This document shows positions 7,990 to 29,858 of a stretch of DNA of 32,000 nucleotides, piece after piece (position 1 is the first letter of the stretch; each line of letters starts with the position of its first letter). The stretch lies in contig NZ_BCZP01000001.1 of assembly GCF_001598795.1 (NCBI RefSeq), positions 150,001 through 182,000 on the forward strand, in the 5' to 3' direction. The notes under the pieces were generated by a model. It ran no database searches, was not told where the DNA came from, and saw only the letters and a list, made by a program, of their open reading frames with translations. The DNA is from Delftia acidovorans NBRC 14950. GTDB taxonomy: Bacteria; Pseudomonadota; Gammaproteobacteria; Burkholderiales; Burkholderiaceae_C. The position numbers and the translations under genes were made by a program.

Positions 7990-10845
7990 TTACGCCTTGT
8001 GGCGCTCTTCGCCAGCGCCGTGCAGGTTGCTGTCGCAACGGCCGCACAGGCTGGGGTGCTCGGGGTTGATGCCCACGTCGGCACGGTAGTGCCAGCAGCG
8101 GTCGCACTTGGCATGGCTGCTGGGTGTGACGGCGGCCTGCAGGGCCTCGCCTGCCAGGGCCTCGGCCGCCGAGGTGATGAAGACGAACTTCAGGTCGTCG
8201 CCCAGGCTTTGCAGCAGGGCCAGGTCTTCGGGCTGGGCCGAGACAGTGACTTCGGCCTGCAGCGAGGAGCCGACCCGGCCTTCGGTGCGCACGGCCTCGA
8301 TGTCCTTGTTCACCACGTCGCGGATCTCGCGCAGGCGCGCCCACTTGGCCAGCAGGGCCTCGTCACCGGCCGGCAGGTCGGTGTAGGTCTCCAGGAAGAT
8401 GGACTCGCTGTCGCCGAAGACCTTCCAGGCCTCCTCGGCCGTGAAGGACAGGAAGGGCGCCATCCAGCGCAGCATGGCATGCGTGATCTGGTGCAGGGCG
8501 GTCTGGGCGCTGCGGCGGGCCAGACTCTTGGGCGCGCTGGTGTACAGGCGGTCCTTGAGCACGTCCAGGTAGAAGCCGCCCAGGTCTTCCGAGCAGAACA
8601 GCTGCAGCTTGGCCACCACGGGGTGGAATTCATAGACCTTGTAGTGGGCCAGCAGCTCGGCCTGGAACTGGGCGGCGCGCGCCAGGGCCCAGCGGTCGAT
8701 CTCCAGCAGCTCTTCGGTGGGAACCGAGTCCTGCGCAGCATCGAAGTCGCTGACGTTGGCCAGCAGGAAGCGCAGCGTGTTGCGGATGCGGCGGTAGGCA
8801 TCCACCACGCGGGCCAGGATCTTGTCGTCGATGCCCAGGTCGCCCGAGTAGTCGGTCGAGGCCACCCACAGGCGGATGATCTCGGCGCCCATCTTGTTGC
8901 TCACGTCCTGCGGGGCGACGGTGTTGCCCAGCGACTTGGACATCTTCTTGCCCTGGCCGTCCACGGTGAATCCGTGCGTCAGCAGGCCGCGGTAGGGCGC
9001 GCGACCGAAGATGGCCGAGGCCAGCAGCAGCGACGAATGGAACCAGCCGCGGTGCTGGTCATGGCCCTCCAGGTAGAGGTCGGCCTCGGGGCCCTGGTCG
9101 TGGTGCATGTCGGCGTGCGTGCCGCGCATCACGTGCCAGAAGGTGGAGCCGGAGTCGAACCAGACTTCGAGGATGTCGGTGCTCTTGGTGTAGTGCACGG
9201 CCTCCTCTGCGCCCAGGATGTCCTCGGCCGTCACGCGGCTCCAGGCCTCGATGCCGCCCTGCTCGACCATGGTGGCCGCCTGGTCGATGATCTCCATGGT
9301 GCGCGGGTGCAGCTCGCCACTGTCCTTGTGCAGGAAGAAGGGCAGGGGCACGCCCCAGCTGCGCTGGCGCGAGATGCACCAGTCGGGGCGGCCGGCGATC
9401 ATGTCGCGCAGGCGGGTCTTGCCGTTCTCCGGGTAGAACTGGGTGTGCTCGATGGCTTCCAGTGCGATCTGGCGCAGCGTCTGCGCGGGCTTGTCGCCGG
9501 GCTTGGTGAACACGCCCTCGCCCTCGTCCATGCGGATGAACCACTGGGCTGCGGCGCGGTAGATCACGGGCGTCTTGTGGCGCCAGCAGTGCGGGTAGCT
9601 GTGGGTGATGGTCTTGGTGTCCATCAGGCGGCCGGCCAGCTTGAGCGCGTCGATGATGACGGGCGTGGCCTTCCAGATGTGCTGGCCACCGAACAGCGGC
9701 AGCTCGGGTGCGTAGACGCCGTTGCCCTGTACGGGGCTCAGGATGTCTTCGCGCGTCATGCCGTTGTTCATGCAGCTGTTGAAGTCGTCCACGCCATAGG
9801 CGGGGGCCGAGTGCACGATGCCGGTGCCGTCATCGGCCGTGGCGTAGTCGGCCAGGAACACGGGCGAGACGCGGTCGAAGCCCTTGTCCATATCGGCCAG
9901 CGGGTGCTTGAACTGCAGGTGGTCCAGCTTGCTGCCCACGGCGGTGGCGACGACCTGGCCTTCGAGCTTCCAGCGTGCCAGACACTTCTCGACCAGGGCC
10001 GAGGCCACGATCAGCAGGCCGCGCTCGGTGTCCACCAGGCTGTATTCCAGCTCGGGGTTGACGTTGAGCGCCTGGTTGGCGGGGATGGTCCAGGCCGTCG
10101 TCGTCCAGATGACGATGAAGGCTTGCTTGGCCAGCGAGGGCAGGCCGAAGGCGCAAGCCAGCTTCTCAGGCTCGGCCGTGGGGAACATCACGTCCAGCGT
10201 CTGGCTTTGCTTGTCGGCGTATTCGATCTCGAACTCGGCCAGCGAGGAGCCGCAGTCAAAGCACCAGTACACGGGCTTGAGGCCGCGGTAGACGAAGCCG
10301 CGCTCCATGACGCGCTTCAGGGCGCGCAGCTCGGCGGCCTCGTTGGCGTAGTTCATGGTCTTGTAGGGATGGTCCCAGTCGCCCAGCACGCCCAGGCGCT
10401 TGAAGTCCACCATCTGCTGGGCGATCTGCTCGGTGGCGAAGGCGCGGCTCTTGGCCTGCATCTCGTCGCGCGGCAGGTTGCGGCCATGCAGCTTTTCGAT
10501 GGCGTTCTCGATGGGCAGGCCGTGGCAGTCCCAGCCCGGCACGTACAGCGCGTCGAAGCCTTCGAGCTGGCGGCTCTTGACGATCATGTCCTTGAGCGCC
10601 TTGTTCACCGCGTGGCCGATGTGGATCTTGCCGTTGGCGTAGGGCGGGCCGTCATGCAGGATGAACTTGGGCGCACCGTGGCGCGCGTCGCGCAGCTTCT
10701 TGTAGAGCCCCTTGTCCTCCCATTCCTGGACCCAGCCCGGCTCGCGCTTGGGCAGGTCGCCGCGCATGGGGAAGGGCGTGTCGGGCATGTTCAGCGTGGC
10801 GCGATAGCCCGCATTGGCGTTGGGAGAGACTTTCGAATCAGACAT
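7990..10845 (-). CDS. ileS: Isoleucine--tRNA ligase
   Basis: Class I aaRS HIGH motif ([11 protein letters not shown]) and KMSKS motif (KKMSKSLGN). The C-terminal zinc-finger cysteines are present (CDRCWHY...CGRC). Length and N-terminus ([31 protein letters not shown]) are typical of IleS. Start set at ATG 10845. Confidence 0.97.
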
Positions 10846-12157: not shown

Positions 12158-12766
12158 GTGAAGGTCTTGAAGCTGTCGGCCCAAGGGCTGCCCCAATCCT
12201 GGATCACGCTGGAGCAGGCGGCGCTGCATTACGCGGCGGACGATGTGCGCTGGGAGTCCGGCGGAGAGGTCGCCTGTTTCCGCGGTGGTCACAATGCCGT
12301 CACGGGCTGCCAGTCGGTCATCCACATTAACAGCATCATCGGCACGCGCGGGGCACCTGCCATCAATCCGCACAGCCTGCAGCCCGGCCTGACCAACGGG
12401 AAGCTGTTCGCACGCGACCGCTGCATCTGCGCCTATTGCGGCCGGGTCTTTCATGAAAACGACCTCACGCGCGAGCACATCGTGCCCATCTCCGCAGGGG
12501 GAGGCCACCAGTGGATGAACCTGGTGACGGCCTGCCGCTCCTGCAATCACCGCAAGGGTGCCCGCACGCCAGAGCAGGCGCGCATGCCGCTGCTCTATAC
12601 GCCCTATGTACCCAGCCTCTGGGAAGACTTCATCCTGCGCAACCGGCGGATCCTGGCCGATCAGATGGAGTTTCTGCTGCTGCACGTGCCCCGGAGTTCG
12701 CGCTGGGCACGGGACGGCTTCGTCGAGGGCGGTGGCGCGCCCACGCACGAGGTGGCGTGGGCTTGA
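12158..12766 (+). CDS. HNH endonuclease family protein
   Basis: HNH/zinc-ribbon core CAYCG-x10-TREHIVPISAGG-x4-MNLVTACRSCNHRKG. GTG 12158 is preceded by GAGGAG with 7-nt spacing. The upstream 100 codons of the track ORF overlap ribF antisense and are rejected. Confidence 0.75.
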   Translation: MKVLKLSAQGLPQSWITLEQAALHYAADDVRWESGGEVACFRGGHNAVTGCQSVIHINSIIGTRGAPAINPHSLQPGLTNGKLFARDRCICAYCGRVFHENDLTREHIVPISAGGGHQWMNLVTACRSCNHRKGARTPEQARMPLLYTPYVPSLWEDFILRNRRILADQMEFLLLHVPRSSRWARDGFVEGGGAPTHEVAWA

Positions 12767-12776
12767 TGAAGGCCCG

Positions 12777-14093
12777 TCAGGCAGCGGTCTTGGTTGCCGT
12801 CACGACAAAGCCCTGAACCGGCTCGCCACCTTCCTGGCGCAGCACCAGTTCTTCCGTCGCCACACTGAAACCGGCTTGCTTGCACAGTGCCTCGATATGG
12901 CTGCGCTTGTGGGCATAGCGCTGGCTGGATTGGAGGACCAGGTCGGGGCCGTCTTCCGAGGCGGTTTCGCAGGAGAAGATAAGTTCGCCACCCGTCTTTA
13001 GAATGCGTGCGGCATTGGGGATGACCAATTGGGGGTCGCCAATGTAGATCAGCACATCGAGCAGGGTCAGTACATCGTATTCATTGGCCGGCGTGTTCTG
13101 AAGCGCACCCAACAGGTCCACATTGTGGAAACGGTCATAGACGCCGTGTTTGGCGGCTTCCTCAATCATCTTGAGCGAGCTGTCCACACCGATCAGATAG
13201 CCTTGCATCGGACCCAGGAACAGCCCCAGCAGGCCGGTACCGCAGCCCAGATCCAGCAGGTTGAAGTCCTTCTCCGGGTGGCGAGCAATCAATTGCCCTG
13301 CAACGATTTTCGGCAGTTGGTAGTTCAGGCCGAGAACCAGATGCCTGTCAAAGCGCTCGGCCATCTCGTCGAACATGGCTTGGTGCATTCCCACCGGAAT
13401 ATGTTGGGGAGTCTCGGCCCGTGCCAGTGCCGCGTAGTAAGCCAGTGTGGCGTCCTGTGGGAATTTTTCCTCAAGGGTACGGATATCGTCCAGGGCCGCT
13501 GCGGGTTCGCCGCGTGCGATTTGAACCTTGATGCGCCCCATTTTGTAGACAGGCTGTTCCGGGAATTCATCCACCAGGGCGTTCCAAATCTGAAGTGCCT
13601 CGGTGTGTTCTCCCAATTCGCCCAGGTCAGCGGCCAGATGCTGCCGCAGCATGGCATCGTTTGGAAAAAGCTCCAGTCCCCGGCGCAGGTGCAGGACAGC
13701 CATTTCATGATTTCCGGCACGGTGCGCGATGTCCACGACGCCCGCAAGCACCTGCGGATTGCGGGGCTCGATGCGCGCCACCTTTTCCGCCATTTCAATG
13801 GCGAGATCGAACTGATCGCGACGTGCGCGATAAAGGGCCGTTTCCAGGAGGCCCGGGCCCCACATCGGGGCGAGTTCAACGCAGCGATCGAAAGCCTCTT
13901 CGGCTTTGGCCGGGTTGCCGGCCTTTTCTGCCATCAGCCCGGCCAGCATGAAGACACGGGCATCGCCTGGCATCTTGCGATGGGCCTTGTTCAGAGTCAG
14001 TGCGGCCTTCTGTAGATCGCCGTTGGAGATCTGCTGGCGAGCCATTTCCAGGTGCTTGCGGTTGATGTCGGCGGGGATGGAAGTAGCGCTCAT
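12777..14093 (-). CDS. TPR-repeat protein fused to a class I SAM-dependent methyltransferase (COG4976-like architecture)
   Basis: The N-terminal ~230 aa are TPR-like helical repeats (GDLQKAALTLNKAHRKMPGDARVFMLAGLMAEKAGNPAKAEEAFDRCVELAP...). The C-terminal part is a Rossmann methyltransferase with SAM motif I LLDLGCGTGLLG and post-I/II motifs (GVDSS, YDVLTLLDVLIYIG, LKTGGELIF). No DPPY/NPPY or PC DNA-methyltransferase motif was seen. The start is uncertain: ATG 14093 (MSATS) or TTG 14117, and neither has a clear SD. Confidence 0.8.
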   Translation of the reverse strand: MSATSIPADINRKHLEMARQQISNGDLQKAALTLNKAHRKMPGDARVFMLAGLMAEKAGNPAKAEEAFDRCVELAPMWGPGLLETALYRARRDQFDLAIEMAEKVARIEPRNPQVLAGVVDIAHRAGNHEMAVLHLRRGLELFPNDAMLRQHLAADLGELGEHTEALQIWNALVDEFPEQPVYKMGRIKVQIARGEPAAALDDIRTLEEKFPQDATLAYYAALARAETPQHIPVGMHQAMFDEMAERFDRHLVLGLNYQLPKIVAGQLIARHPEKDFNLLDLGCGTGLLGLFLGPMQGYLIGVDSSLKMIEEAAKHGVYDRFHNVDLLGALQNTPANEYDVLTLLDVLIYIGDPQLVIPNAARILKTGGELIFSCETASEDGPDLVLQSSQRYAHKRSHIEALCKQAGFSVATEELVLRQEGGEPVQGFVVTATKTAA

Positions 14094-14206
14094 GGACAGG
14101 TGTGTGTTTATGGCCAAGGAGAGGCGGGCGTTGATTGCGGCATGTGCCGGCAGGCCACGCCAGTGGCGAACTTTTCATTATCGTGGATTCTTCGCCCGGC
14201 CATGTT

Positions 14207-16276
14207 TCAAGCTGATGCCTGCAAGGTCTTGGCCTGCGGTGCGGGCAAGGGGCGCGGTGGCAGCGTGAGCGTGAAGCTGGTGCCGCCCTGGGCTGATGGC
14301 GCTGCCTGTATGTCGCCGCCATGCAGGCGCGCAATGCGCCGTGCGACCCACAGGCCCAGGCCGAAGCCGCGGGCCTGGTCCGCGCGGTGGCCGCGCTCGA
14401 AGCGCTCGAAGATGCGTTGCGCCAGCTCGGGTGCAAGACCCGGGCCCTGGTCGCTGACAGTGAGTTCCAGCTGGCCGTGTTCGTCGGTGCGCGCGCGCAC
14501 GGCGATTTCTCCGGCCTTGGCGTATTTCACCGCGTTGTCCACGAGGTTGGACAGGGCGATGCGGGTGAGCGTGGAGTCGCACTCCCATGTGGCGGGCGCA
14601 CTGGCGCTGTCCAGGTTCAGGTGGTGGCGGCGTGACCAGTGCACAAGCTGCGCGGCATCATCGACCAGCTCCATGACGGGAGCGCGGTGCAATTGCAGCC
14701 GGAAGGCGGGAGCATCCAGGCGGTCGCTGATCAGGCAGTTGTCCACCAGGGCCGTCAGGCGCCTGCAGGCGCGGCGGATCTGTGCGGCGCGCTCCAGCTG
14801 GGAGTCGATGTCGGGCGAGGGAAAGGACAGCTGCTCGGTGGCCGCGCTGTCCACCACGGCCAGCGGCGTGCGGAATTCATGGTTGACCATGTTGAAGAAC
14901 TGGCGCTGCTCCAGCCGCAGCGTGCGTTCGCTGTGCAGTGCCGCTTGCAGTGCGTTCTGGGCGCGCAGCAGCTCGGCCGTGCGCAGGCGTACACGCTCTT
15001 CCAGCGCATGCTCGGACTTGGCAAGGGATTCGAGCAGCTGTGCCTGGCGTGCCATGGATTCCCGGAATTTCTGGATCAGGCCGGCGCCCACGGCCACGGT
15101 GATCACGATGTTGACCAGCAAGGTGTTGAGCTGCCAGAACACGCTGGTTTCTATGGTCGGCAGGCTGGTCAGGCCGACATAGGCCGCTGTCACATACAGG
15201 CCCATCAGCCCATACATGGTGCTGGGAACCACCATCAACACATGGACCAGATTGGCACGCTCGCGCAGCAGATTGCTCCATGCCACCACGGCGAACAGTG
15301 CGCTGATGGCCCAGGGCGCGCCAACCCCTATCCAGGCCCAGTCCTGGTAGCGGCCCAGCGGTATGCTGGGCAGGCACAGCAGCGGGATGATTCCCAGGGC
15401 GAGCAAGGCCCGATCCATGCGCCGCCAGCGTGTGTCGCGTGTCAGCAGCTCGCGCATCTGCCAGGCCAGGGCGGCGGGCAGCATCAAGGTGCCCAGGCTG
15501 ACGCAAAGATGGCCCCAGTGCGCGAGATGGTCGGGCAGCCAGATCTGCAGGTACCCCCGGTCGCTGGCGCCGTGGATCAGCACGGCCATGGCGGCCACGG
15601 CCATGGCGGCCAGATTGCGCAGGCGCAGGGCCAGGGCAGCGCCGATGATCAGCAGGGCCAGCATGAGGTTGATGCCCTGATGGATGCCAGAGGCCCATTC
15701 CACGGCCGAGAACTGTGTCATCAGGCCGCTGCTGCGCCAGAGCGTGGCGTCCAGCTGCATGGGGCTTGAGGTCTGCACGCGCAGGATGAAGGGCTGGCCC
15801 GAGTACAGCGGAAACACCAGCTGCCGAACATGCACGCGCGGTTCGTCGGTGGCCGTATCACCGCTGCTGCGCATGCGCCATGCGCCGTCCACGTGCTGGT
15901 AGAGCGCAACGCGGTCCAGATAACTGGGCAGGATTTCCAGCCACAGCGGATCGTGCTCGGGGTCTGCCTTGCCGGCGGCGATGTGAGGCGCCTGCACCTT
16001 GAGCCAATACACATCGCGCGTATAGCCCTTGTTCAGCGGTGTATCGAGCAGGGTGAAATCCGTGTCCGGCAGGGTGGCCACCTGGTCGATGGTGAAGCTG
16101 CCCTGTGCATCGACGAGCGCCAGCATGGGCAGGTCCGTGCCCAGCTGCAGGCGCTTTGCCGGCAGGGACTGCCAGGCCGGGCTGAGAATGAAGCAGACCA
16201 CCAGCACCAGAGAAAACACCAGCCAGCCCGGCAGCGCCAGCCGGTTCAGGATACGCAGCAGGTTCAGGATACGCAT
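14207..16276 (-). CDS. 7TMR-DISM sensor histidine kinase, paralogue 1 (DISMED2 extracellular domain - 7TM - HisKA - HATPase)
   Basis: 689 aa from ATG 16276 (MRILNLLRILNRLALPGWLVF...). Domain order is: extracellular domain with the YTRDVYWLKV / HVRQLVFPL pattern, seven hydrophobic helices, a coiled coil, H-box NHEFRTPLAVV, N-box LSNLVDNAVKYA, G1 DQGPG and G2 GFGLGLW. There is no receiver domain, so it is not a hybrid kinase. The 127-codon 5' extension in the track ORF is the out-of-frame 3' end of the upstream paralogue. Confidence 0.9.
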   Translation of the reverse strand: MRILNLLRILNRLALPGWLVFSLVLVVCFILSPAWQSLPAKRLQLGTDLPMLALVDAQGSFTIDQVATLPDTDFTLLDTPLNKGYTRDVYWLKVQAPHIAAGKADPEHDPLWLEILPSYLDRVALYQHVDGAWRMRSSGDTATDEPRVHVRQLVFPLYSGQPFILRVQTSSPMQLDATLWRSSGLMTQFSAVEWASGIHQGINLMLALLIIGAALALRLRNLAAMAVAAMAVLIHGASDRGYLQIWLPDHLAHWGHLCVSLGTLMLPAALAWQMRELLTRDTRWRRMDRALLALGIIPLLCLPSIPLGRYQDWAWIGVGAPWAISALFAVVAWSNLLRERANLVHVLMVVPSTMYGLMGLYVTAAYVGLTSLPTIETSVFWQLNTLLVNIVITVAVGAGLIQKFRESMARQAQLLESLAKSEHALEERVRLRTAELLRAQNALQAALHSERTLRLEQRQFFNMVNHEFRTPLAVVDSAATEQLSFPSPDIDSQLERAAQIRRACRRLTALVDNCLISDRLDAPAFRLQLHRAPVMELVDDAAQLVHWSRRHHLNLDSASAPATWECDSTLTRIALSNLVDNAVKYAKAGEIAVRARTDEHGQLELTVSDQGPGLAPELAQRIFERFERGHRADQARGFGLGLWVARRIARLHGGDIQAAPSAQGGTSFTLTLPPRPLPAPQAKTLQASA
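14832..14931 (-). repeat. 100-bp tract identical to 16907-17006 (H-box / DHp helix 1 coding region), copy 1
   Basis: Checked base by base: tgctcggtggccgcgctgtccaccacggccagcggcgtgcggaattcatggttgaccatgttgaagaactggcgctgctccagccgcagcgtgcgttcgc is present at both positions. It encodes ERTLRLEQRQFFNMVNHEFRTPLAVVDSAATEQ. Confidence 0.95.
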
Positions 16277-16278
16277 GG
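16243..16278 (-). repeat. 18-bp in-frame tandem duplication at the kinase-2 stop / kinase-1 start junction
   Basis: The plus strand reads ggttcaggatacgcagca then ggttcaggatacgcatgg (15 of 18 identical). On the coding strand this is ATG CGT ATC CTG AAC CTG / CTG CGT ATC CTG AAC CGG, translating as M-RILNL-L-RILNR. Confidence 0.9.
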
Positions 16279-18342
16279 CGAGGCGGGCTGTGTTGCAGCT
16301 GTGGCAAGGCCGCTGTCTTCGGGAATGCTGCTGGGCAGCGTCAGCGTGAAGCAGGTGCCGCCGCCCGGGGCTGGCGTGACCTGCACATCGCCGCCATGCA
16401 TCTGGGCCACGCGCCGGGCCACCCACAGCCCCAGGCCGAAGCCTCGGGTCTGGTCCGAACGCTCTCCGCGCTCGTGCAGCTCGAAGATGCGCTGCGCCAA
16501 CTCGGGCGCCAGGCCAGGGCCCTCGTCGCTGACGGTGAGTTCCAGCCTGCCCTGTCCGTCCTGGCGGGCGCATACGGCGATTTCTCCGGCCTGGGCGTAT
16601 TTCACGGCGTTGTCCACGAGGTTGGACAGGGCGATGCGCACCAGGGTGGGATCGCACTCCCAGGAGGCGGGGACGCCCTCAGTCTCCAGCTTCAGATGGT
16701 GGCGGCGCGACCAGTGCACGAGCTGCACGGCATCGTCGATCAGGTCCATCACGGGCACCCGGTCGAGCTGCAGCCGGAACGCAGGCGCGTCCAGTCGGTC
16801 GCTGACCAAGCAGTTGTCCACCAGGGCCGTGAGGCGCCTGCAGGCGCGGCGGATCTGGGCTGCGCGTTCCAGCTGGGAATCGATATCGGTGGACGGAAAA
16901 GTCAGTTGCTCGGTGGCCGCGCTGTCCACCACGGCCAGCGGCGTGCGGAATTCATGGTTGACCATGTTGAAGAACTGGCGCTGCTCCAGCCGCAGCGTGC
17001 GTTCGCCATGCAAGGCGGCCTGCAGCGCGTTTTGCGCATGCAGCAGCTCCGCCGTGCGTGTGCGCACCCGTCCTTCCAGCGCATGTTCCGACCGGGCCAG
17101 CGACTCCACCAGCTGCGCCTGCCTGCCCATGGAGTTTTGGAATTTCTCGACCAGGCTGGCGCCCACGGCAATGATGATGAGGATGTACAGCAGCAGCGAT
17201 TCCAGCTGCCAGTACATGCCTGCCTCAATGTCGGAAGACACCAGTCCCGTATAGGCCGCAGCCACGTGGATGCCCATGACCGTGTGCAGCGTGTAGGGAA
17301 TCAGCACCAGCAGGTTGACGATGCTGGGGCCCTGGCGGAACAGGTTCTGCCAGGCCACCAGCGCACTCAGCAGACTGGCCATCCAGGGCACGCTGACCCC
17401 CAGCCAGGCCCATTGCGTGTAGTGCCCCGTCGGTATGCTGAGTACGGCTAGCAGCGGTGCCACGGTCAGCAGCACCAGCATGCGATCGATGCGGCGCCAG
17501 GCCGTGCCGCGCGTCAAGGTCTCGCGTGCCTGCCAGGCAAAGGCGGCAGGCAGCAGGAAGACGCCCACGCTCACCCAGACATCCGCATGCGGCGCCCAGG
17601 GCTCGGGCAGCCACAGCTGGGCATAGCCGCGCACATTGGCGTTGTGGGTCAGCACCACGAAGGCCAGCAAGGTCATGGCCATCAGGCTGCGCATGCGCAG
17701 GGCCAGGGCCGCGCCCGCGATCAGCAGAGTCAGCACCAGGTTCACACCCTGATGCACACCCGATGCCCACTCGACGCTGGACAACCAGGCCATCAGCCCC
17801 GTGCTGCGCCAGACCGTGGCGTACAGCTGCATGGCGCTGCTGGTCTCGATGCGCAGCACAAAGGGCTGGCCAGCGCGCAGTGGAAACACCAGCTGGCGCA
17901 CATGGATGCGCTGAGCCATGGGCACGGTGTCACCGCTTTCCCTCGCCTGCCACAGGCCGTGCGCCTGCTGGTAGAGCGTGACCCTGTCCAGATAGGTGGG
18001 CGTGATCTCCAGCCACAGCGCATCGTTGTCGGCCAGCCCGCTTGTGGGCGCAAGCGCAGGCGTGGCAACCCTCACCCAGTAAGCATGGCGGGTATAGCCC
18101 TCGTTCAGAGGCGTGCGCCGGGTTTCGAAGGCATCATCGGGCAGGGCCGCGACCTGTTCAATGGTCATGCTGCGGCCCGCATCGGCAAGCACCTGCATGG
18201 GCAGGTCCTTGCCCAGACGCAGTCCCCCGTCAGGGGGAGGCATGGTTGCCGGGCTCAGCACGAAAAATGCGAGCAGCCCGAGCGAGACCATGATCCATGC
18301 AATAAATGTAAATTTTTGTGTGTTTCTCTGAACTGTGAGCAT
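16264..18342 (-). CDS. 7TMR-DISM sensor histidine kinase, paralogue 2
   Basis: Same architecture as paralogue 1, with the kinase core about 85% identical and the sensor plus 7TM part roughly 55-60% identical by eye. The stop TGA (16264-16266) lies inside codons 4-5 of paralogue 1, giving a 13-bp overlap. The start is uncertain: ATG 18342 (MLTVQRNTQKFTFIAW..., by analogy with paralogue 1), ATG 18360 or TTG 18399. Confidence 0.88.
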   Translation of the reverse strand: MLTVQRNTQKFTFIAWIMVSLGLLAFFVLSPATMPPPDGGLRLGKDLPMQVLADAGRSMTIEQVAALPDDAFETRRTPLNEGYTRHAYWVRVATPALAPTSGLADNDALWLEITPTYLDRVTLYQQAHGLWQARESGDTVPMAQRIHVRQLVFPLRAGQPFVLRIETSSAMQLYATVWRSTGLMAWLSSVEWASGVHQGVNLVLTLLIAGAALALRMRSLMAMTLLAFVVLTHNANVRGYAQLWLPEPWAPHADVWVSVGVFLLPAAFAWQARETLTRGTAWRRIDRMLVLLTVAPLLAVLSIPTGHYTQWAWLGVSVPWMASLLSALVAWQNLFRQGPSIVNLLVLIPYTLHTVMGIHVAAAYTGLVSSDIEAGMYWQLESLLLYILIIIAVGASLVEKFQNSMGRQAQLVESLARSEHALEGRVRTRTAELLHAQNALQAALHGERTLRLEQRQFFNMVNHEFRTPLAVVDSAATEQLTFPSTDIDSQLERAAQIRRACRRLTALVDNCLVSDRLDAPAFRLQLDRVPVMDLIDDAVQLVHWSRRHHLKLETEGVPASWECDPTLVRIALSNLVDNAVKYAQAGEIAVCARQDGQGRLELTVSDEGPGLAPELAQRIFELHERGERSDQTRGFGLGLWVARRVAQMHGGDVQVTPAPGGGTCFTLTLPSSIPEDSGLATAATQPASPCVS
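16907..17006 (-). repeat. 100-bp tract identical to 14832-14931, copy 2
   Basis: Same evidence as copy 1. Flanking sequence on both sides carries scattered mismatches. Confidence 0.95.
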
Positions 18343-18411
18343 TCGAGAGTGTTCGTGCATGGCGGCGGACGTTCGCCCCAATGAAAATCCGCGCACCAAT
18401 AGGCAAACATC
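18343..18411. promoter_or_regulatory. Divergent promoter region between kinase paralogue 2 and the response regulator
   Basis: Short intergenic region, at most 69 bp, flanked by locally AT-rich 5' gene ends (about 47-55% GC in 18300-18540). Specific -35/-10 elements were not confidently identified. Confidence 0.4.
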
Positions 18412-19113
18412 ATGCAGCAGACACTAGAGCCATCGATCGAGTTCACCGTCGCCGTCGTAGAGGACGACGAGGATATTCGTATCAATGTGTGTCGATTTTT
18501 AACAAAGTCTGGCTTGCATGCCTGGGGCACGGATTCTGCAGAAGACTTCTACATAAAGCTACTGCGTGAGAAGGCAGATCTGGTCGTCGTCGACCTGGGC
18601 CTGCCCGGCGAGGACGGCCTGAGCCTGGTCAAGCGCCTGGCCGAGCAGGAGATTCCCGTCGTGGTGCTCACGGCACGCGGCGATCTGGACAGCCGCATTG
18701 CCGGCCTCAATGCCGGCGCCCTGCAGTACTTCGTCAAGCCCACCGACATGAACGAGCTGGTGGCCGGCATCCGCTCCCAGCTGCGCCGCAACACGGGCCA
18801 GCCGGCCCGGGCGGCGGCACCTTTCCTGACTTGGCGCCTTGACCCCCTTTCGGCCTGCATGGTCGCGCCCAACCACCAGATCATCGCCCTGACCAGTCGC
18901 GAGCTGGAATTGCTCGGCTGCCTGATGGCAACCCCCGGAACCATGGTGGCCAAGCAGACCTTGATCGAGACCATGGGATACGCCGATGTGGATGACGGCT
19001 TCCACCGCATCGAATCGCAACTGACGCGGCTGCGCCGCAAGACCCTGGATATCTCCGGGCTGGCCCTGCCGGTGAGGGCAGTGTTCGGCCGAGGGCTGGT
19101 GTTCGTGCCTTAG
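18412..19113 (+). CDS. OmpR-family two-component response regulator (receiver + winged-helix DNA-binding domain)
   Basis: Receiver motifs are VAVVEDDEDI, the phospho-acceptor context LVVVDLGLPGEDG, VVVLTARGD and YFVKP. The C-terminal Trans_reg_C-like segment is LTSRELELLGCLMATPGTMVAKQTLIE...IESQLTRLRRK...VRAVFGRGLVFV. Confidence 0.92.
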   Translation: MQQTLEPSIEFTVAVVEDDEDIRINVCRFLTKSGLHAWGTDSAEDFYIKLLREKADLVVVDLGLPGEDGLSLVKRLAEQEIPVVVLTARGDLDSRIAGLNAGALQYFVKPTDMNELVAGIRSQLRRNTGQPARAAAPFLTWRLDPLSACMVAPNHQIIALTSRELELLGCLMATPGTMVAKQTLIETMGYADVDDGFHRIESQLTRLRRKTLDISGLALPVRAVFGRGLVFVP

Positions 19114-19310
19114 GCGCCTTTTTCTTCTCCATTTCAGCTTTTTGAACCGCAGCCGTCCGGGCATGCGGAAGGGATTCGTTCGCCCATTTTTTTGCTGCAG
19201 AAGCGCGTGCGCGTGCTTGGGCGGCTTGGTGCTGGCTGCGTGCGCAGGCGGACGGCGTGGGCCGTCGGAGTTTTCAACCGTGATCAAACACACATGAAGA
19301 GAGGAATGGT

Positions 19311-21776
19311 ATGGCGAGACAGAGTTTGCATATCCGGCCCGCAGGGCCGCGCATGAAGGCCTGGAGGCAGGCCAGAAGTCTGGTTGCAGCCGGCACCCTG
19401 GCAATGGTGGGTGCAGTTGCGCAGGCGGCATTTCTGAATGGGGACTTCGAGGCAGGGGACCTGACTGGCTGGACCCCCCAGGCCTGGACCAACAATGGCA
19501 CCCAGGCCAATCCGAAACGCTTGAGCGAGTTGCGCCTGCAGCCACCTGGCACCAAGTCCCATCTGGTCGAAATCGCCAGCGGCTCGGAAAGCGCCGCAGA
19601 CGAAGTCCTGTTCCGGGGTGACGCTGGCCAGTCCGCCCTCAAACTGACTTTGGCAGGCTCCCACTCTGCCCGTATCAACCTCAAGGCGAACAGCGCCACC
19701 CCAGCCAGCAACGTGATACCGCGGTCCAGCAAGGTCACGGGGGGACTCGCCGGCTGGACCCAGCAGGTCAATACGGCAAGTTCCATCACCCAGGAAGTGA
19801 CGCTGACTGCAGATGACATCGACCAGGACGGCAAGATCCACATCCGATTTGTCGCGGCGCCCGTGCTTGAGTACGCCAGCAATCACGGAGGCGAGGATCG
19901 CCCCTACTTTGCCATCTCGCTGGTCAAGACCTATGACGCCCAGACCTCCACGGATCTGACGGGCTCGCCCCAGGAGTTGTTCTTCAAGTACCACTACGGC
20001 GGCGAGCCGGGAGCACCCTGGAAGACCTTTACCGACAAGGGCGGTGCCATCCAGAACTACACCGACCCTCAGGCCTACGATGTCGCACCCGGCAATGCCT
20101 ACCTGCGGGTAGGCGACAAGGTCAGGCTGCAGGCCGTGGCCTCGGCCTGCAGTGCCGGTGGCCACGCAGGCCATCTGTACGTTGACAACTTCGGCACGAC
20201 CCTGCCCAAGACACTGTGGATCAGCGCGTCCGGGCCTGTCAGCGCGCCCAAGGCGGACGGCACGGAGATCACCTACACCTATACCTATACGAACAACGGC
20301 AGCACCCCGGTGAACAACGTGAAGGTCACGCCCGCGATGCCCGTGGGCACGGATGCGGGCATCAGTCCGACCACGTTCGTGTCACTGGCCGGCGATGGCG
20401 GCGCTTGCACGGCCCCGGCCGTGGGCAGTTCAGACCCTGCCCAGTGCGACTTTGGGACCCTGGCACCCGGGCAGTCGGGCACGTTCACGATGACCGTGAA
20501 GGTTCCTTTGGGCACGCCGTCAGACCAGATCAACAACGGCAACTACACCATCGGAGGCGACCTGACCTCGACCCTGCTCGGTGCCATGGTGCAGACCCAA
20601 TTGCTGGCTCCCGCGGCGAGCAGCGACATGGTGCCTGATGTCTCCGGACTCCCGCCCACCGCCGTGGTCGGCGTGCCCTACACCGGCAGCTTCTCCTGCA
20701 AGAACGATGGTGCAGCCAGCGCAGGCCAGGCCATCTGCGATGCCTCCGGTCTGCCCCCTGGCGTGACGGCAGGCCAATGCACGATAGACGGCGCGGCCTG
20801 GATGCAGCCCGGCGTGGTGCCTGCGGGCAAGACGGTGGTCTGCCAGGTCTCTGGTACACCGACGGGTCCAGGCGGCAGCTCGACGGTCACGGTGACCACG
20901 GGCGGCGACAACGACCTGACCCCGGGCAACAACACGACCACGTCGAACATCGCGGTCACCACAACGCCGGACATGCAGATCAATCTGAGCGGACTGCCCC
21001 CCACCTCGCCGCTGAACATTCCCTATAGCGGCAGCTTCACCTGCAGCAACCAGGGCCTGGCCAACGCCGTGAGCGGCACCTCCTGCGCCGTCACCGGCCT
21101 GCCGGCTGGCGTGACGCAAGGCGCATGCTCCATCAGCCCCGGCAATGCCGCGTGGGTGGCGGGCAATGCGGTGCCGGTGGGAGCCACGGTCACCTGTCAG
21201 GTGAGCGGTACGCCCACGGCCGCAGGTTCGTCCACGGTCACGGGCACCACGGGCGCAACGGATGATTCGAATGCGGCGAACAACACCGCGACCGTGAATG
21301 TGTCCACCGTTGCAGTGCCCGACATGGGCGTCGATCTGAGCGGCCTGCCGACCGCGTTCACGGCCGGCACGCCCTACAGCGGCAGTTTTGTCTGCAAGAA
21401 CCTGGGTTCGGTCGATGCATCGGCAGGCACCTCGTGCGCAGTCACGGGACTGCCCGCCGGTGTGAGCCAGGGAGCGTGCCGCATCAGCCCTGCCAATGCA
21501 GCCTGGTCGACAGGTGATGCCGTACCTGCGGGCGCCAGCGTGACCTGCACGGTCAGCGGAACGCCCAGCTCCGTGGGAGCCGTGACACTGACGGGCAGCA
21601 CCGGTGCGACCGGAGATGCCAACCCGGCCAACAACACGGCTTCCCGCGCAGCGGCAGGGGCCGTGTCGCCGGCCTCCATCCCCACGCTCTCCGAATGGGG
21701 CCTGATCCTGATGTCCGGCCTGATGGGCATCATGGGCTGGGGCATGGTGCGCCGCCGCCGCGCCAACCCGCTGTGA
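19311..21776 (+). CDS. Secreted multi-domain surface protein with a C-terminal IPTL-CTERM sorting signal
   Basis: GAGAGGA lies 6 nt upstream of ATG 19311. A signal peptide ends at AVAQA/AF. Domains in order:
- An N-terminal ~260-aa beta-rich domain opening NGDFEAGDLTGW (jelly-roll/CBM-like).
- A DUF11-type 'conserved repeat domain' (TEITYTYTYTNNGSTPVNNVKVT...GQSGTFTMTVKV).
- Three ~115-aa Cys4 repeats.
- The C-terminus IPTLSEWGLILMSGLMGIMGWGMVRRRR, made of motif, TM helix and basic cluster. Confidence 0.85.
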   Translation: MARQSLHIRPAGPRMKAWRQARSLVAAGTLAMVGAVAQAAFLNGDFEAGDLTGWTPQAWTNNGTQANPKRLSELRLQPPGTKSHLVEIASGSESAADEVLFRGDAGQSALKLTLAGSHSARINLKANSATPASNVIPRSSKVTGGLAGWTQQVNTASSITQEVTLTADDIDQDGKIHIRFVAAPVLEYASNHGGEDRPYFAISLVKTYDAQTSTDLTGSPQELFFKYHYGGEPGAPWKTFTDKGGAIQNYTDPQAYDVAPGNAYLRVGDKVRLQAVASACSAGGHAGHLYVDNFGTTLPKTLWISASGPVSAPKADGTEITYTYTYTNNGSTPVNNVKVTPAMPVGTDAGISPTTFVSLAGDGGACTAPAVGSSDPAQCDFGTLAPGQSGTFTMTVKVPLGTPSDQINNGNYTIGGDLTSTLLGAMVQTQLLAPAASSDMVPDVSGLPPTAVVGVPYTGSFSCKNDGAASAGQAICDASGLPPGVTAGQCTIDGAAWMQPGVVPAGKTVVCQVSGTPTGPGGSSTVTVTTGGDNDLTPGNNTTTSNIAVTTTPDMQINLSGLPPTSPLNIPYSGSFTCSNQGLANAVSGTSCAVTGLPAGVTQGACSISPGNAAWVAGNAVPVGATVTCQVSGTPTAAGSSTVTGTTGATDDSNAANNTATVNVSTVAVPDMGVDLSGLPTAFTAGTPYSGSFVCKNLGSVDASAGTSCAVTGLPAGVSQGACRISPANAAWSTGDAVPAGASVTCTVSGTPSSVGAVTLTGSTGATGDANPANNTASRAAAGAVSPASIPTLSEWGLILMSGLMGIMGWGMVRRRRANPL
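20625..21653 (+). repeat. Three tandem ~345-351-bp coding repeats (~115 aa each) inside the IPTL-CTERM protein
   Basis: Repeat starts are at residues D439, D554 and D671 (PDMxxxLSGLPxT). Each has the pattern PY(T/S)GSFxCxNxG...(A/T)xC(D/A)xxGLPxGVxxGxCxIxxxxAAW...VPxGxxVxCxVSGTP...NNT, with four conserved cysteines. Confidence 0.85.
21675..21773 (+). other. IPTL-CTERM tripartite sorting signal (coding segment)
   Basis: IPTLSEWG motif, a hydrophobic helix LILMSGLMGIMGWGMV and an RRRR basic cluster at the extreme C-terminus. Confidence 0.8.
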
Positions 21777-21798
21777 CCGGCAGTCGGTCGTGACACAG

Positions 21799-21823
21799 GG
21801 CGCCCTTCGGGGCGCCTTTTTTT
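21799..21823 (+). terminator. Rho-independent terminator after the IPTL-CTERM gene
   Basis: ggcgccc-ttcg-gggcgcc perfect 7-bp GC stem followed by T7 (21817-21823), 23 bp after the stop codon. Confidence 0.85.
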
Positions 21824-21898
21824 CATCTGGGCGCGGCCGCAGCCAATTGACTTGCTCAATGTGTGATCGAATAAGGGTTTATACCTAGCGATATCCCC

Positions 21899-28519: not shown

Positions 28520-28634
28520 CTTGCAGACGCAATAAGCTGTAAATCGCAGGAGATTGCCGAATGCCTTGGTAGGCGCATCGCCTAAAATTGAGGCATCGGT
28601 GCCACTGGGCGCCGCCTTGCCAAAGGCTTCGGTT

Positions 28635-29858
28635 ATGTCGCTGGATTTCGGATCGGTTTGGAACCTCGCCGTGGATTGGATGGCCCATGGCCTGTGGCAG
28701 CTGTCGTGGTGGCAGCTGCTGCTGTACGCCCTGGTCACCACCCACATCACCATTGCGGGCGTCACCATTTTCCTGCACCGCTGCCAGGCCCACCGCTCGC
28801 TGGACCTGGGGCCGGTTCCTTCGCACTTCTTCCGTTTCTGGCTGTGGCTGGGCACGGGCATGGTCACCAGGGAGTGGGTGGCCATCCACCGCAAACACCA
28901 CGCCAAGTGCGAAACCGAGGACGACCCCCACAGCCCGCAGACACGCGGCCTGGACACCGTGATGCGCCAGGGTGCGGAGCTGTACCGCGAAGAGGCGGCG
29001 AACGCCGAGACACTCAGGAAGTTCGGCCACGGCACGCCCGACGACTGGATCGAGCGCCATCTCTACAGCCGGCATTCGATCTGGGGCCCTTCGCTGATGC
29101 TGATCATCAATGTGCTGCTGTTTGGCGCCATCGGGCTGACGATCTGGGCCGTGCAGATGGTCTGGATTCCGTTCTGGGCTGCCGGCGTGGTCAACGGTCT
29201 GGGCCATTTCTGGGGCTACCGCAACTTCGAGGCCCAGGATGCCAGCACCAACCTCGTGCCCTGGGGCCTGATCATTGGCGGCGAGGAACTGCACAACAAC
29301 CACCATACCTACCCGACCTCGGCGAAGTTCTCGGTCAAGCGCTATGAGTTCGACGTGGGCTGGGTCTACATCAGCGCCATGCAGAAGCTGGGCTGGGCCA
29401 AGGTCAAGAAGACGGCGCCGCGGCTGATCATGGGCGCCGTCAAGCCCGTGGCCGACGAAAAGACGCTGGAGGCCGTGATCGCCAACCGCTACGAGGTCAT
29501 GGCCCGCTATGCGCGCGGCGTGCGCGCCGCCGTGCAGATCGAGCTCGATGCGCTCAAGCAGCGCAAGGCCCGGCAGGCCGACCTGTCCCTGCTCAAGACG
29601 GCGCGCCGCTGGCTGCACCGCGATGCCGACAAGGTGCCCGCCCAGGCGCAGGGGCAACTGGCCCAGGCGCGCGCAGCCCACCCCGTGCTCGACCAGATGC
29701 TGGTCATGCGCGAGGAGTTGCGTCAGCTGTGGCTGAACACCTCGCTGTCGCGCGAGCAACTGACGGCACATCTGCAGGCCTGGTGCCATCGCGCCGAGGC
29801 CAGCGGCATTGCCGCGCTCAAGGAGTTTTCCGTCAAGCTGCGCGCTGCCCACGCCTGA
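28635..29858 (+). CDS. Membrane fatty-acid (acyl-lipid/acyl-CoA) desaturase, Pseudomonas DesA-like
   Basis: Three histidine boxes are present: HRCQAH, HRKHH and HNNHH. The N-terminus has TM helices (WWQLLLYALVTTHITIAGVTIFL) and there is a helical C-terminal extension. Start set at ATG 28635; the track start at 28554 is TTG. Confidence 0.86.
   Translation: MSLDFGSVWNLAVDWMAHGLWQLSWWQLLLYALVTTHITIAGVTIFLHRCQAHRSLDLGPVPSHFFRFWLWLGTGMVTREWVAIHRKHHAKCETEDDPHSPQTRGLDTVMRQGAELYREEAANAETLRKFGHGTPDDWIERHLYSRHSIWGPSLMLIINVLLFGAIGLTIWAVQMVWIPFWAAGVVNGLGHFWGYRNFEAQDASTNLVPWGLIIGGEELHNNHHTYPTSAKFSVKRYEFDVGWVYISAMQKLGWAKVKKTAPRLIMGAVKPVADEKTLEAVIANRYEVMARYARGVRAAVQIELDALKQRKARQADLSLLKTARRWLHRDADKVPAQAQGQLAQARAAHPVLDQMLVMREELRQLWLNTSLSREQLTAHLQAWCHRAEASGIAALKEFSVKLRAAHA

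Follow-up and report, generated by a model that had tools for sequence, protein, structure and literature searches.

Can two membrane-bound sensor kinases, a single response regulator and the surface protein encoded next to them be read as one regulatory unit? A locus in Delftia acidovorans NBRC 14950 raises this question. It lies within a stretch of 32,000 nucleotides (nt) that we analysed in full and refer to as the window (assembly GCF_001598795.1, contig NZ_BCZP01000001.1, positions 150,001 to 182,000 of the forward strand). Here, two tandem histidine kinases of the 7TMR-DISM type (K1 and K2) are transcribed divergently from a response regulator of the OmpR/PhoB type (RR), which is followed by the gene of a secreted protein with an IPTL-CTERM tail (the cargo). 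We propose, with a probability of roughly 0.6, that this arrangement is a conserved module of the Comamonadaceae, in which one or two kinases and a TPR/methyltransferase gene are divergent from RR and an exchangeable IPTLxxWG surface protein, RR acting as the activator. Comparison with related loci further brought to light a triple repeat with a period of 10 base pairs (bp) upstream of the RR gene, a predicted operator that was missed in the first-pass annotation of this DNA.

A recurring module in the Comamonadaceae

We compared 15 related loci with enough flanking sequence. A scan of genome contigs with the full-length kinase alignment gave mostly generic HisKA/HATPase matches, with close relatives only at loci L001-L004, and a metagenome scan with a narrower alignment of the sensor domain gave six loci, two of them informative. 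In 13 of the 15 loci the gene directly after RR has an IPTL-type tail; a kinase is still present in 12 of these and missing from one (L097). The first-pass annotation had proposed a survey of whether such genes co-occur across relatives, and the comparison shows that kinase, RR and IPTL-tailed gene form a recurring unit, which is found twice in the unrelated context of Ottowia.

Eleven of the 13 supporting loci occupy the same slot, between ribF and an acyl-CoA dehydrogenase gene. The module order in this slot is seen in Delftia tsuruhatensis (L081) and in Acidovorax and Verminephrobacter (L001-L004), and also in L086, L088, L089, L092 and L093. Two loci of Ottowia thiooxydans (L085 and L087) combine kinase, RR and a cargo of 1531-1533 amino acids in a different genomic context, with an ankyrin-repeat gene in place of the methyltransferase. 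A TPR-methyltransferase gene follows the kinase in L081, L001, L003, L004, L086, L088, L089, L092 and L093, and is absent in L002 and Ottowia. In L089 it still adjoins the kinase, a TRAP transporter being inserted beyond it, and in L097, where the kinase has been deleted, the order is methyltransferase, RR and cargo, so that the methyltransferase adjoins RR. The module therefore also takes in this conserved gene, which the earlier annotation had left out.

The cargo itself is far less constant, ranging from 580 to about 1900 amino acids across loci. Its passenger domains differ wholly from one locus to another (CLIPPER alone; CLIPPER with Flg_new_2; DUF7933 with SdrD_B; RCC1/GEVED/Big_9), and the IPTL-type tail and the position are kept through all of these swaps. 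No other open reading frame (ORF) with an IPTL-type tail was found in the flanks of the module loci. The Ottowia loci and the repeated replacement of passengers are the informative cases.

A predicted operator upstream of the regulator gene

Upstream of the RR gene, an ungapped alignment across 13 loci revealed a box of three direct repeats, with the consensus (T)GTGAGtnnTT G(T/A)GAGtnnTT GTGCATGG. The repeats are centred at about -58, -48 and -38 of the predicted RR promoter. The 23 nt between box and -10-like hexamer are variable in sequence but contain zero indels in 13/13 loci, and the length of the 5′ untranslated region of RR varies among the same loci. With a weight matrix each locus yielded a single site, scoring 34-47 bits and lying in every case upstream of RR. 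Moreover, a strict form of the pattern matched once in each of 16 kinase-family loci and in 0/81 other fetched loci; the window holds one match where 0.05 would be expected. The box is retained in L084, whose RR and kinase genes share one strand and where the box has no divergent kinase start beside it, and also in L097 despite the loss of the kinase. In L085, L087 and L093 the kinase start lies 285-460 bp from the box, the distance to the RR -10 hexamer being unchanged.

The receiver domain of RR (PF00072, E = 6e-22) has the phospho-acceptor D61, T88 and K109 in canonical contexts, and the score of its Trans_reg_C domain (PF00486), 30.4 bits, exceeds the cutoff of 26.2. Full-length alignments of RR to the OmpR and PhoB models of NCBIfam stay below the equivalog cutoffs; no NCBIfam equivalog could be named for K1, K2, RR or the cargo. 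The recognition helix (FHRIESqLTRLRRK) hardly varies among 14 orthologues, nor does the wing (LPVRAVFGkGLVF). Promoters activated by PhoB and OmpR have a standard architecture, in which direct repeats of about 10-11 bp stand in tandem against the -35 region. Given this architecture, and a near-invariant helix and wing that match an invariant box, we read the box as the predicted operator of RR, through which RR would control its own gene. The first-pass annotation had instead proposed to test regulator binding between RR and cargo (19114-19310), where the box has no copy; the site predicted here lies in front of the regulator gene itself.

The third repeat holds the K1 start codon on the opposite strand (GTGCAT = ATGCAC), and K1 codons 1-9 (MHEHSRMLT) are the reverse complement of the box at 18335-18360. 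Because the box contains this start codon, occupancy by RR may also affect transcription of the kinases, although this is speculative. No convincing promoter or Shine-Dalgarno sequence for K1 was found in the 51-bp divergent gap, and the true K1 start may be Met1, Met7 or Met24.

Two further observations concern the box. A lone kinase at L082 retains a box remnant of 28.6 bits. In addition, the stretch immediately upstream of the box (18308-18334) holds two or three more AT-rich repeats of a degenerate kind, GTAAAtttttGTGTGtttctCTGAA; their score with the three-repeat matrix is 15.8 bits, they are 7 bp out of phase, and they were seen only in Delftia loci.

Two diverged sensors with a near-identical phosphotransfer region

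Both kinases carry a clear 7TMR-DISMED2 domain (PF07696; 69.4 bits in K2 and 80.0 bits in K1 against a cutoff of 22, with E = 4e-19 and 2e-22, respectively), together with HisKA and HATPase_c domains, and neither has a Response_reg match in Pfam. The 7TMR-DISM_7TM domain (PF07695) did not reach its gathering cutoff of 29 bits (24.6 and 24.8 bits), the K1 match covering positions 5-203 of the 205 in the profile; a crude hydropathy scan shows several hydrophobic segments across kinase residues 200-404. Thus, of the domains anticipated by the first-pass annotation for the locus, DISMED2, HisKA, HATPase_c, Response_reg, Trans_reg_C, DUF11 and IPTL-CTERM were recovered, and 7TMR-DISM_7TM was left below its cutoff. 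The motifs HEFRTPL, DNAVKY, D(Q/E)GPGL and GFGLGL are present in both proteins, whose H, N, G1 and G2 boxes are intact.

The closest homologues of the kinases come from Delftia (90% identity to D. tsuruhatensis in the homologue search, and 88-89% for the kinases of its locus L081, with 88% for the K2 orthologue), and homologues were found only in Comamonadaceae, namely Delftia, Acidovorax, Ottowia, Diaphorobacter, Pulveribacter and Pseudorhodoferax. K1 and K2 are 65% identical to each other, and this identity is unevenly spread. In the sensor part (DISMED2 and 7TM) they share 0.66-0.69 of nucleotides and about 55% of amino acids, compared with 0.56-0.72 between K1 and the kinases of other genera. 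In the dimerisation/phosphotransfer (DHp) region they share 0.87 of nucleotides and 0.91 of amino acids, compared with 0.67-0.78 between K1 and other genera. At third codon positions, identity is about 0.55 in the sensor and climbs to 0.82 in the DHp region, in which K1 of the window is about as close to K2 as it is to K1 of D. tsuruhatensis (0.88).

Two kinases occur only in Delftia-like loci (the window, L081 and L090), and all other loci have one. The pair is a Delftia-specific tandem duplication, the single kinase being the ancestral state. The mosaic could have arisen from gene conversion of the DHp region or from accelerated divergence of the sensors; either history leaves two inputs and one shared output specificity. 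Diverged sensors joined to near-identical DHp regions fit two inputs that feed one regulator. Separately, the single kinase of Acidovorax sp. SDU_ACID1 (L002, 10001-12026) aligns as three pieces in different frames, and is either a pseudogene or the product of assembly errors.

Does the regulator control the surface protein?

Several findings weigh against the proposed module with RR as activator of the cargo. Most of the supporting loci are syntenic and are therefore not independent observations. No cargo accompanies RR and kinase in L084, and in L082 a kinase stands alone next to an RND efflux pump. In Ottowia the tail has diverged to an IPTL-like form (PVPTLGELA...), which Pfam matches weakly in L085 and not at all in L087. 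With both the three- and the two-repeat matrix, the spacers between RR and cargo gave no box in the window or in the 10 other syntenic loci with a kinase that were scanned. Any dependence of the cargo on RR in these loci would thus be indirect, or be through read-through from the autoregulated promoter. Two weak hairpin/T-run features lie between RR and cargo, and they are stronger in L002 and L088. The first-pass annotation was right about the length of this spacer (197 bp), whereas its statement that no clear terminator is present holds only in part. The second hairpin reaches -11.4 kcal/mol for the 36 nt upstream of its T-run; over its full length, the spacer is no more stably folded than shuffled versions of it (z = -0.28).

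The spacer also contains a 19-nt element with the consensus GG(G/A)ATTCG(T/C)T(C/T)G(C/T)C(C/T)(A/T)TTT, which precedes the cargo ATG by about 110-140 nt. The element recurs at 9059-9077 of L081 and at 7890-7908 of L096, with zero chance matches expected in the window. L096 is an unlinked cargo paralogue of D. tsuruhatensis that has neither an adjacent two-component system nor a box. The cargo may therefore also have, or only have, a promoter of its own, and the element may be that promoter or the site of another regulator. By eye the element resembles a copy of the third repeat; it falls below the scan thresholds and we do not claim it as one.

In Ottowia the picture is different. The cargo is immediately preceded by a second box, GTGAGtgcttGTGAGtaactGAATGTGG, which the two-repeat matrix scores at 25.9 bits (15.8 bits for the copy in L087), and a TAGATT hexamer follows in the same geometry as at the RR promoter. 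Such a cargo-proximal copy was found only in Ottowia, where it is direct in-silico evidence that the gene with the IPTL-like tail belongs to the RR regulon. The first-pass annotation had envisaged a self-contained circuit. The recurrence of the module and the pattern of two inputs converging on one RR speak for this view, and the step from RR to cargo is plausible in the window yet unproven; we put RR-dependent expression of the cargo there at a little better than an even chance. As a side observation, the predicted cargo promoter of Ottowia (L085 about 8570-8600, minus strand, and likewise L087) is directly followed by a GGCG...CGCC hairpin and a U-run, some 70 nt ahead of the ATG. Such a terminator-like structure would lie within the 5′ leader, where it could serve as an attenuator. 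Similar hairpins occur about 40 nt before the cargo ATG in L002 and L088.

Alternative explanations

The arrangement could be inherited synteny and nothing else. The two-component system would then autoregulate and control other targets, such as the kinase/methyltransferase operon or distant genes, and the IPTL-tailed gene would occupy a recombination-prone slot under its own promoter. The box-less spacers of the window and the other syntenic loci, the hairpin/T-run features between RR and cargo, the upstream element in common with an unlinked paralogue, the retention of RR and kinase without cargo in L084 and the single slot that accounts for 11/13 supporting loci all point this way. What is harder to reconcile with it is that the Ottowia trio keeps together in a different context, with a second box before the cargo, that RR and cargo have stayed together after deletion of the kinase in L097, and that the replaced passengers always bear the same sorting tail. 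On these grounds we consider synteny without regulation unlikely, and favour the module in which RR activates.

Two other proposals bear on parts of the locus. K1 and K2 might form an antagonistic pair in the style of RetS and LadS, acting as kinase and phosphatase or as inhibitory heterodimers through the DHp region. Heterodimers could be allowed by the DHp region, whose amino acid identity is 91% compared with about 55% for the sensors, tandem overlapping genes suggest a matched stoichiometry, and RetS blocks GacS by direct interaction (PMC4866733). But both kinases keep their catalytic motifs and are without receivers, RetS and LadS being hybrid kinases (PMC4866733), and opposing signs are not indicated anywhere in the sequence. 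Furthermore, all non-Delftia loci have one kinase, so that the module works without a partner, and we regard an antagonistic pair as quite improbable. The box, for its part, might be a 28-nt motif conserved as the code for the kinase N-terminus (MHEHSRxLT) and not as a DNA operator, as in 9/13 loci it shares the reading frame of the kinase ORF and provides the start ATG. Against this, the motif stays with the RR promoter where the kinase start is distant (L085, L087 and L093), not adjoining (L084) or absent (L097), its period of 10 bp is no multiple of three, and the second copy in the RR-cargo spacer of Ottowia lies in non-coding DNA, away from any kinase gene. Taken together, in our judgement these points exclude protein conservation as the explanation, which leaves it barely credible, and the box is best taken as the predicted operator of RR.

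The surface protein

The cargo begins with a signal peptide, MARQSLHIRPAGPRMKAWRQARSLVAAGTLAMVGAVAQA|AF, as judged by inspection, followed by an N-terminal beta-sandwich domain of about 270 amino acids that starts FLNGDFEAGDLTGW. Next come a CLIPPER/DUF11 Ig domain at residues 311-409 (PF01345, E = 2.5e-15 over 2 stretches) and three Cys-containing Ig-like repeats of about 116 amino acids each at residues 439-787. The tail, IPTLSEWG-LILMSGLMGIMGWGMV-RRRR (residues 788-817), comprises motif, hydrophobic stretch and basic cluster, and matches IPTL-CTERM models (PF18203, E = 5e-13; TIGR04174, E = 5e-12). In an AlphaFold model of residues 39-433 (pLDDT 79.5) the fold is all-beta, with a beta-sandwich and then Ig domains. 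The best Foldseek match in the PDB was a MAM-Ig-FN structure, among generic MAM/Ig/transglutaminase beta-sandwich matches with TM-scores of 0.2-0.26; these being generic and low, we assign no specific function to the cargo.

The family of the N-terminal domain is small (22 clusters found). This part of the cargo is 57% identical to its D. tsuruhatensis orthologue, compared with 97% for RR, 94% for bestrophin and 95% for ribF. The D. tsuruhatensis protein has one repeat of about 116 amino acids, consistent with its length of 580 amino acids.

The NCBI families include one named 'exosortase H, IPTLxxWG-CTERM-specific', and the cargo tail has a sub-threshold match to the NCBIfam model 'midcut-by-XrtH'. 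No exosortase was found among the window ORFs or in any fetched flank, and the literature searched held nothing relevant on XrtH or exosortase H. In fibrillar adhesins, DUF11/CLIPPER domains serve as stalks stabilised by isopeptide bonds (PMC12617251), and the S-layer protein mela_00855 of Methylomirabilis lanthanidiphila is an IPTL-CTERM protein (PMC8671808). It is a reasonable reading that the cargo is an anchored adhesin or surface-layer protein.

Layout of the locus and neighbouring genes

The features of the locus are collected in Table 1. The coordinates and domains agree with the first-pass annotation. The non-hybrid kinases are head-to-tail with an overlap of 13 bp, read directly from the K1 stop TGA (16266-16264) and the K2 ATG (16276-16274), they diverge from one OmpR-type regulator with Response_reg and Trans_reg_C domains, and the 821-residue secreted IPTL-CTERM protein has a strong terminator of its own.

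Table 1. Features of the kinase, regulator and surface-protein locus, in window coordinates.
Feature	Position	Strand	Details
TPR-repeat and class-I SAM methyltransferase, cytoplasmic	12777-14096	-	Pfam TPR, Methyltransf_11/12/25/31
K2, orthodox 7TMR-DISM histidine kinase, downstream paralogue	14207-16276	-	689 amino acids; ORF listing and Pfam
K1, orthodox 7TMR-DISM histidine kinase, upstream paralogue	16264-18360	-	698 amino acids; ORF listing and Pfam
Predicted regulator box, three direct repeats of 10-bp period, GTGAGcattc GAGAGtgttc GTGCATGG	18335-18362	+	Ungapped 13-locus alignment
-10-like hexamer GAAAAT	18383-18388	+	(G/C)ACAAT in relatives (GACAAT or CACAAT); fixed spacing from box
RR, OmpR/PhoB-type response regulator	18412-19113	+	233 amino acids; ORF listing, domain and family matches
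Two weak terminator-like hairpin/T-run features	19105-19126; ~19158-19194	+	Second positionally conserved in D. tsuruhatensis
Cargo-associated cis element GGGATTCGTTCGCCCATTT	19171-19189	+	Common to D. tsuruhatensis orthologue (L081) and unlinked cargo paralogue (L096)
Cargo, IPTL-CTERM surface protein	19311-21776	+	821 amino acids; ORF listing and domains
Cargo intrinsic terminator	21797-21828	+	Hairpin 21797-21818; 9-bp stem, 7 G-C pairs, then TTTTTCATCT

K1 and RR are separated by only 51 bp, and RR and cargo, on the same strand, by 197 bp. The TPR-methyltransferase gene lies about 113 bp downstream of K2 and is probably the last gene of the kinase operon. Its product gave no specific NCBIfam match, and a signal peptide was looked for and not found. 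The gene has a G+C content of 0.59 against about 0.67, and it diverges faster than its neighbours (75% amino acid identity to D. tsuruhatensis, compared with 95% for ribF).

Beyond the methyltransferase lies a housekeeping flank of lspA, ileS, ribF and a small HNH gene, and beyond the cargo are bestrophin, two acyl-CoA dehydrogenases, DUF480 and purN. The HNH gene encodes a stand-alone endonuclease of about 200 amino acids (about 12160-12766, plus strand) between ribF and the module, a position that is kept in all syntenic Comamonadaceae loci. Its matches are confined to the HNH domain of IscB and Cas9d models, and the ORF as listed (302 amino acids, overlapping ribF) is probably over-extended. 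Further away, a DesA-family fatty-acid desaturase with an ISL3-transposase-like C-terminal tail is encoded at 28554-29858 (plus strand). This is an architecture known to NCBIfam (NF049918/NF049919) and not an artefact of fusion. A PAS-GGDEF-EAL protein of 887 amino acids is encoded at 32-2695 (plus strand), 11 kb from the module. An Rfam search of the window gave no match.

A working model

We suggest that the module would operate as follows. The periplasmic DISMED2 domains would sense an envelope or extracellular cue, and K1 and K2 would both phosphorylate RR, because their DHp domains are near-identical. Phosphorylated RR would then bind the three repeats at 18335-18362 and activate its own promoter; the cis element comes from comparison between loci, and binding and its sign are our predictions. 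In the window the cargo would be expressed by read-through from this autoregulated promoter past the two weak hairpins, and in Ottowia from the second box directly upstream. The protein would be exported by Sec, and an exosortase whose gene lies elsewhere in the genome would presumably process it and anchor it by way of the IPTL-type tail.

A wider view of the same data is possible, though doubtful. Kinase, RR and the GTGAGTnnTT x3 operator might be the dedicated sensory arm of an IPTLxxWG (exosortase-H-type) surface-protein pathway in the Comamonadaceae. In such a pathway a glycan- or envelope-sensing kinase would switch on an exchangeable and fast-diversifying adhesin cassette, the TPR-methyltransferase would be an obligatory partner, the overlap of operator and start codon would provide feedback, and the duplication in Delftia would add a second input.

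A two-component system with a neighbouring surface-protein target is no new principle. The interest of the locus is that it offers a compact, conserved and tractable pairing with a concrete predicted operator. Moreover, the presence of one kinase in most genera and two in Delftia, together with loci that have lost kinase or cargo, provides a natural experiment. The locus may help to identify the signals of DISMED2 domains and to show how Delftia and Acidovorax, which matter in water treatment and opportunistic infection, deploy exosortase-type cargo.

Comparison with known systems

We are not aware of a described regulator of any IPTL-CTERM protein, nor of an output for the many orthodox 7TMR-DISM kinases outside the Pseudomonas Gac network. 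Likewise, the literature searched held no paper linking 7TMR-DISM signalling to an IPTL-CTERM protein, in line with the statement of the first-pass annotation that no characterised example was known. The cargo resembles other IPTL-CTERM and CLIPPER proteins in its signal peptide, beta-sandwich and Ig passengers, IPTL-type tail and DUF11 stalk modules.

The predicted RR promoter is comparable to pho-box promoters and to the class II promoters of OmpR, in which a winged-helix regulator binds tandem repeats of about 10-11 bp that replace the -35 region and abut the -10. In PhoB/OmpR-type systems the regulator gene is positively autoregulated. The promoter described here, to which RR is predicted to bind, differs in its repeat (GTGAGTnnTT), in having three units and in the use of the proximal unit as the start codon of a divergent kinase.

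RetS and LadS of Pseudomonas aeruginosa were invoked in the first-pass annotation as the best-known relatives of the kinases, and they do share the periplasmic 7TMR-DISMED2 domain, with a 7TM region that is putative in K1 and K2, and the principle of several sensors with one surface or biofilm output. This parallel turned out to be weak. RetS and LadS are hybrid kinases that act on or through GacS-GacA and the Rsm small RNAs (PMC4866733), whereas K1 and K2 are orthodox and a single kinase is ancestral. RetS and LadS are unlinked and without an adjacent OmpR-type regulator, in contrast to the tandem, recent paralogues K1 and K2. Similarity of the kinases to RetS is limited to the generic kinase core, and no gacS or gacA was found in the window. 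As K1 and K2 have no receiver domain, membership of a RetS/LadS type fails.

The PrsK/PrsR system offers a closer parallel, with several differences. PrsK is not a 7TMR-DISM kinase, unlike K1 and K2, and PrsR is a sigma-54 activator of the Fis/NtrC type, whereas RR is of the OmpR type with direct repeats at a sigma-70-like promoter. The cargo of PrsK/PrsR carries a PEP-CTERM tail in place of IPTLxxWG, and the system lies within exopolysaccharide/exosortase clusters, in contrast to the locus described here, which has no exosortase or exopolysaccharide gene nearby. Nevertheless, in both cases a dedicated two-component system is tied genomically to cargo with an exosortase-type tail (PMC1569441, PMC9850573), a conserved upstream box is predicted for cargo genes, and a role of the proteins in the biology of the surface, flocs or matrix is implied. 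PrsK/PrsR is the nearest functional counterpart of the Delftia module.

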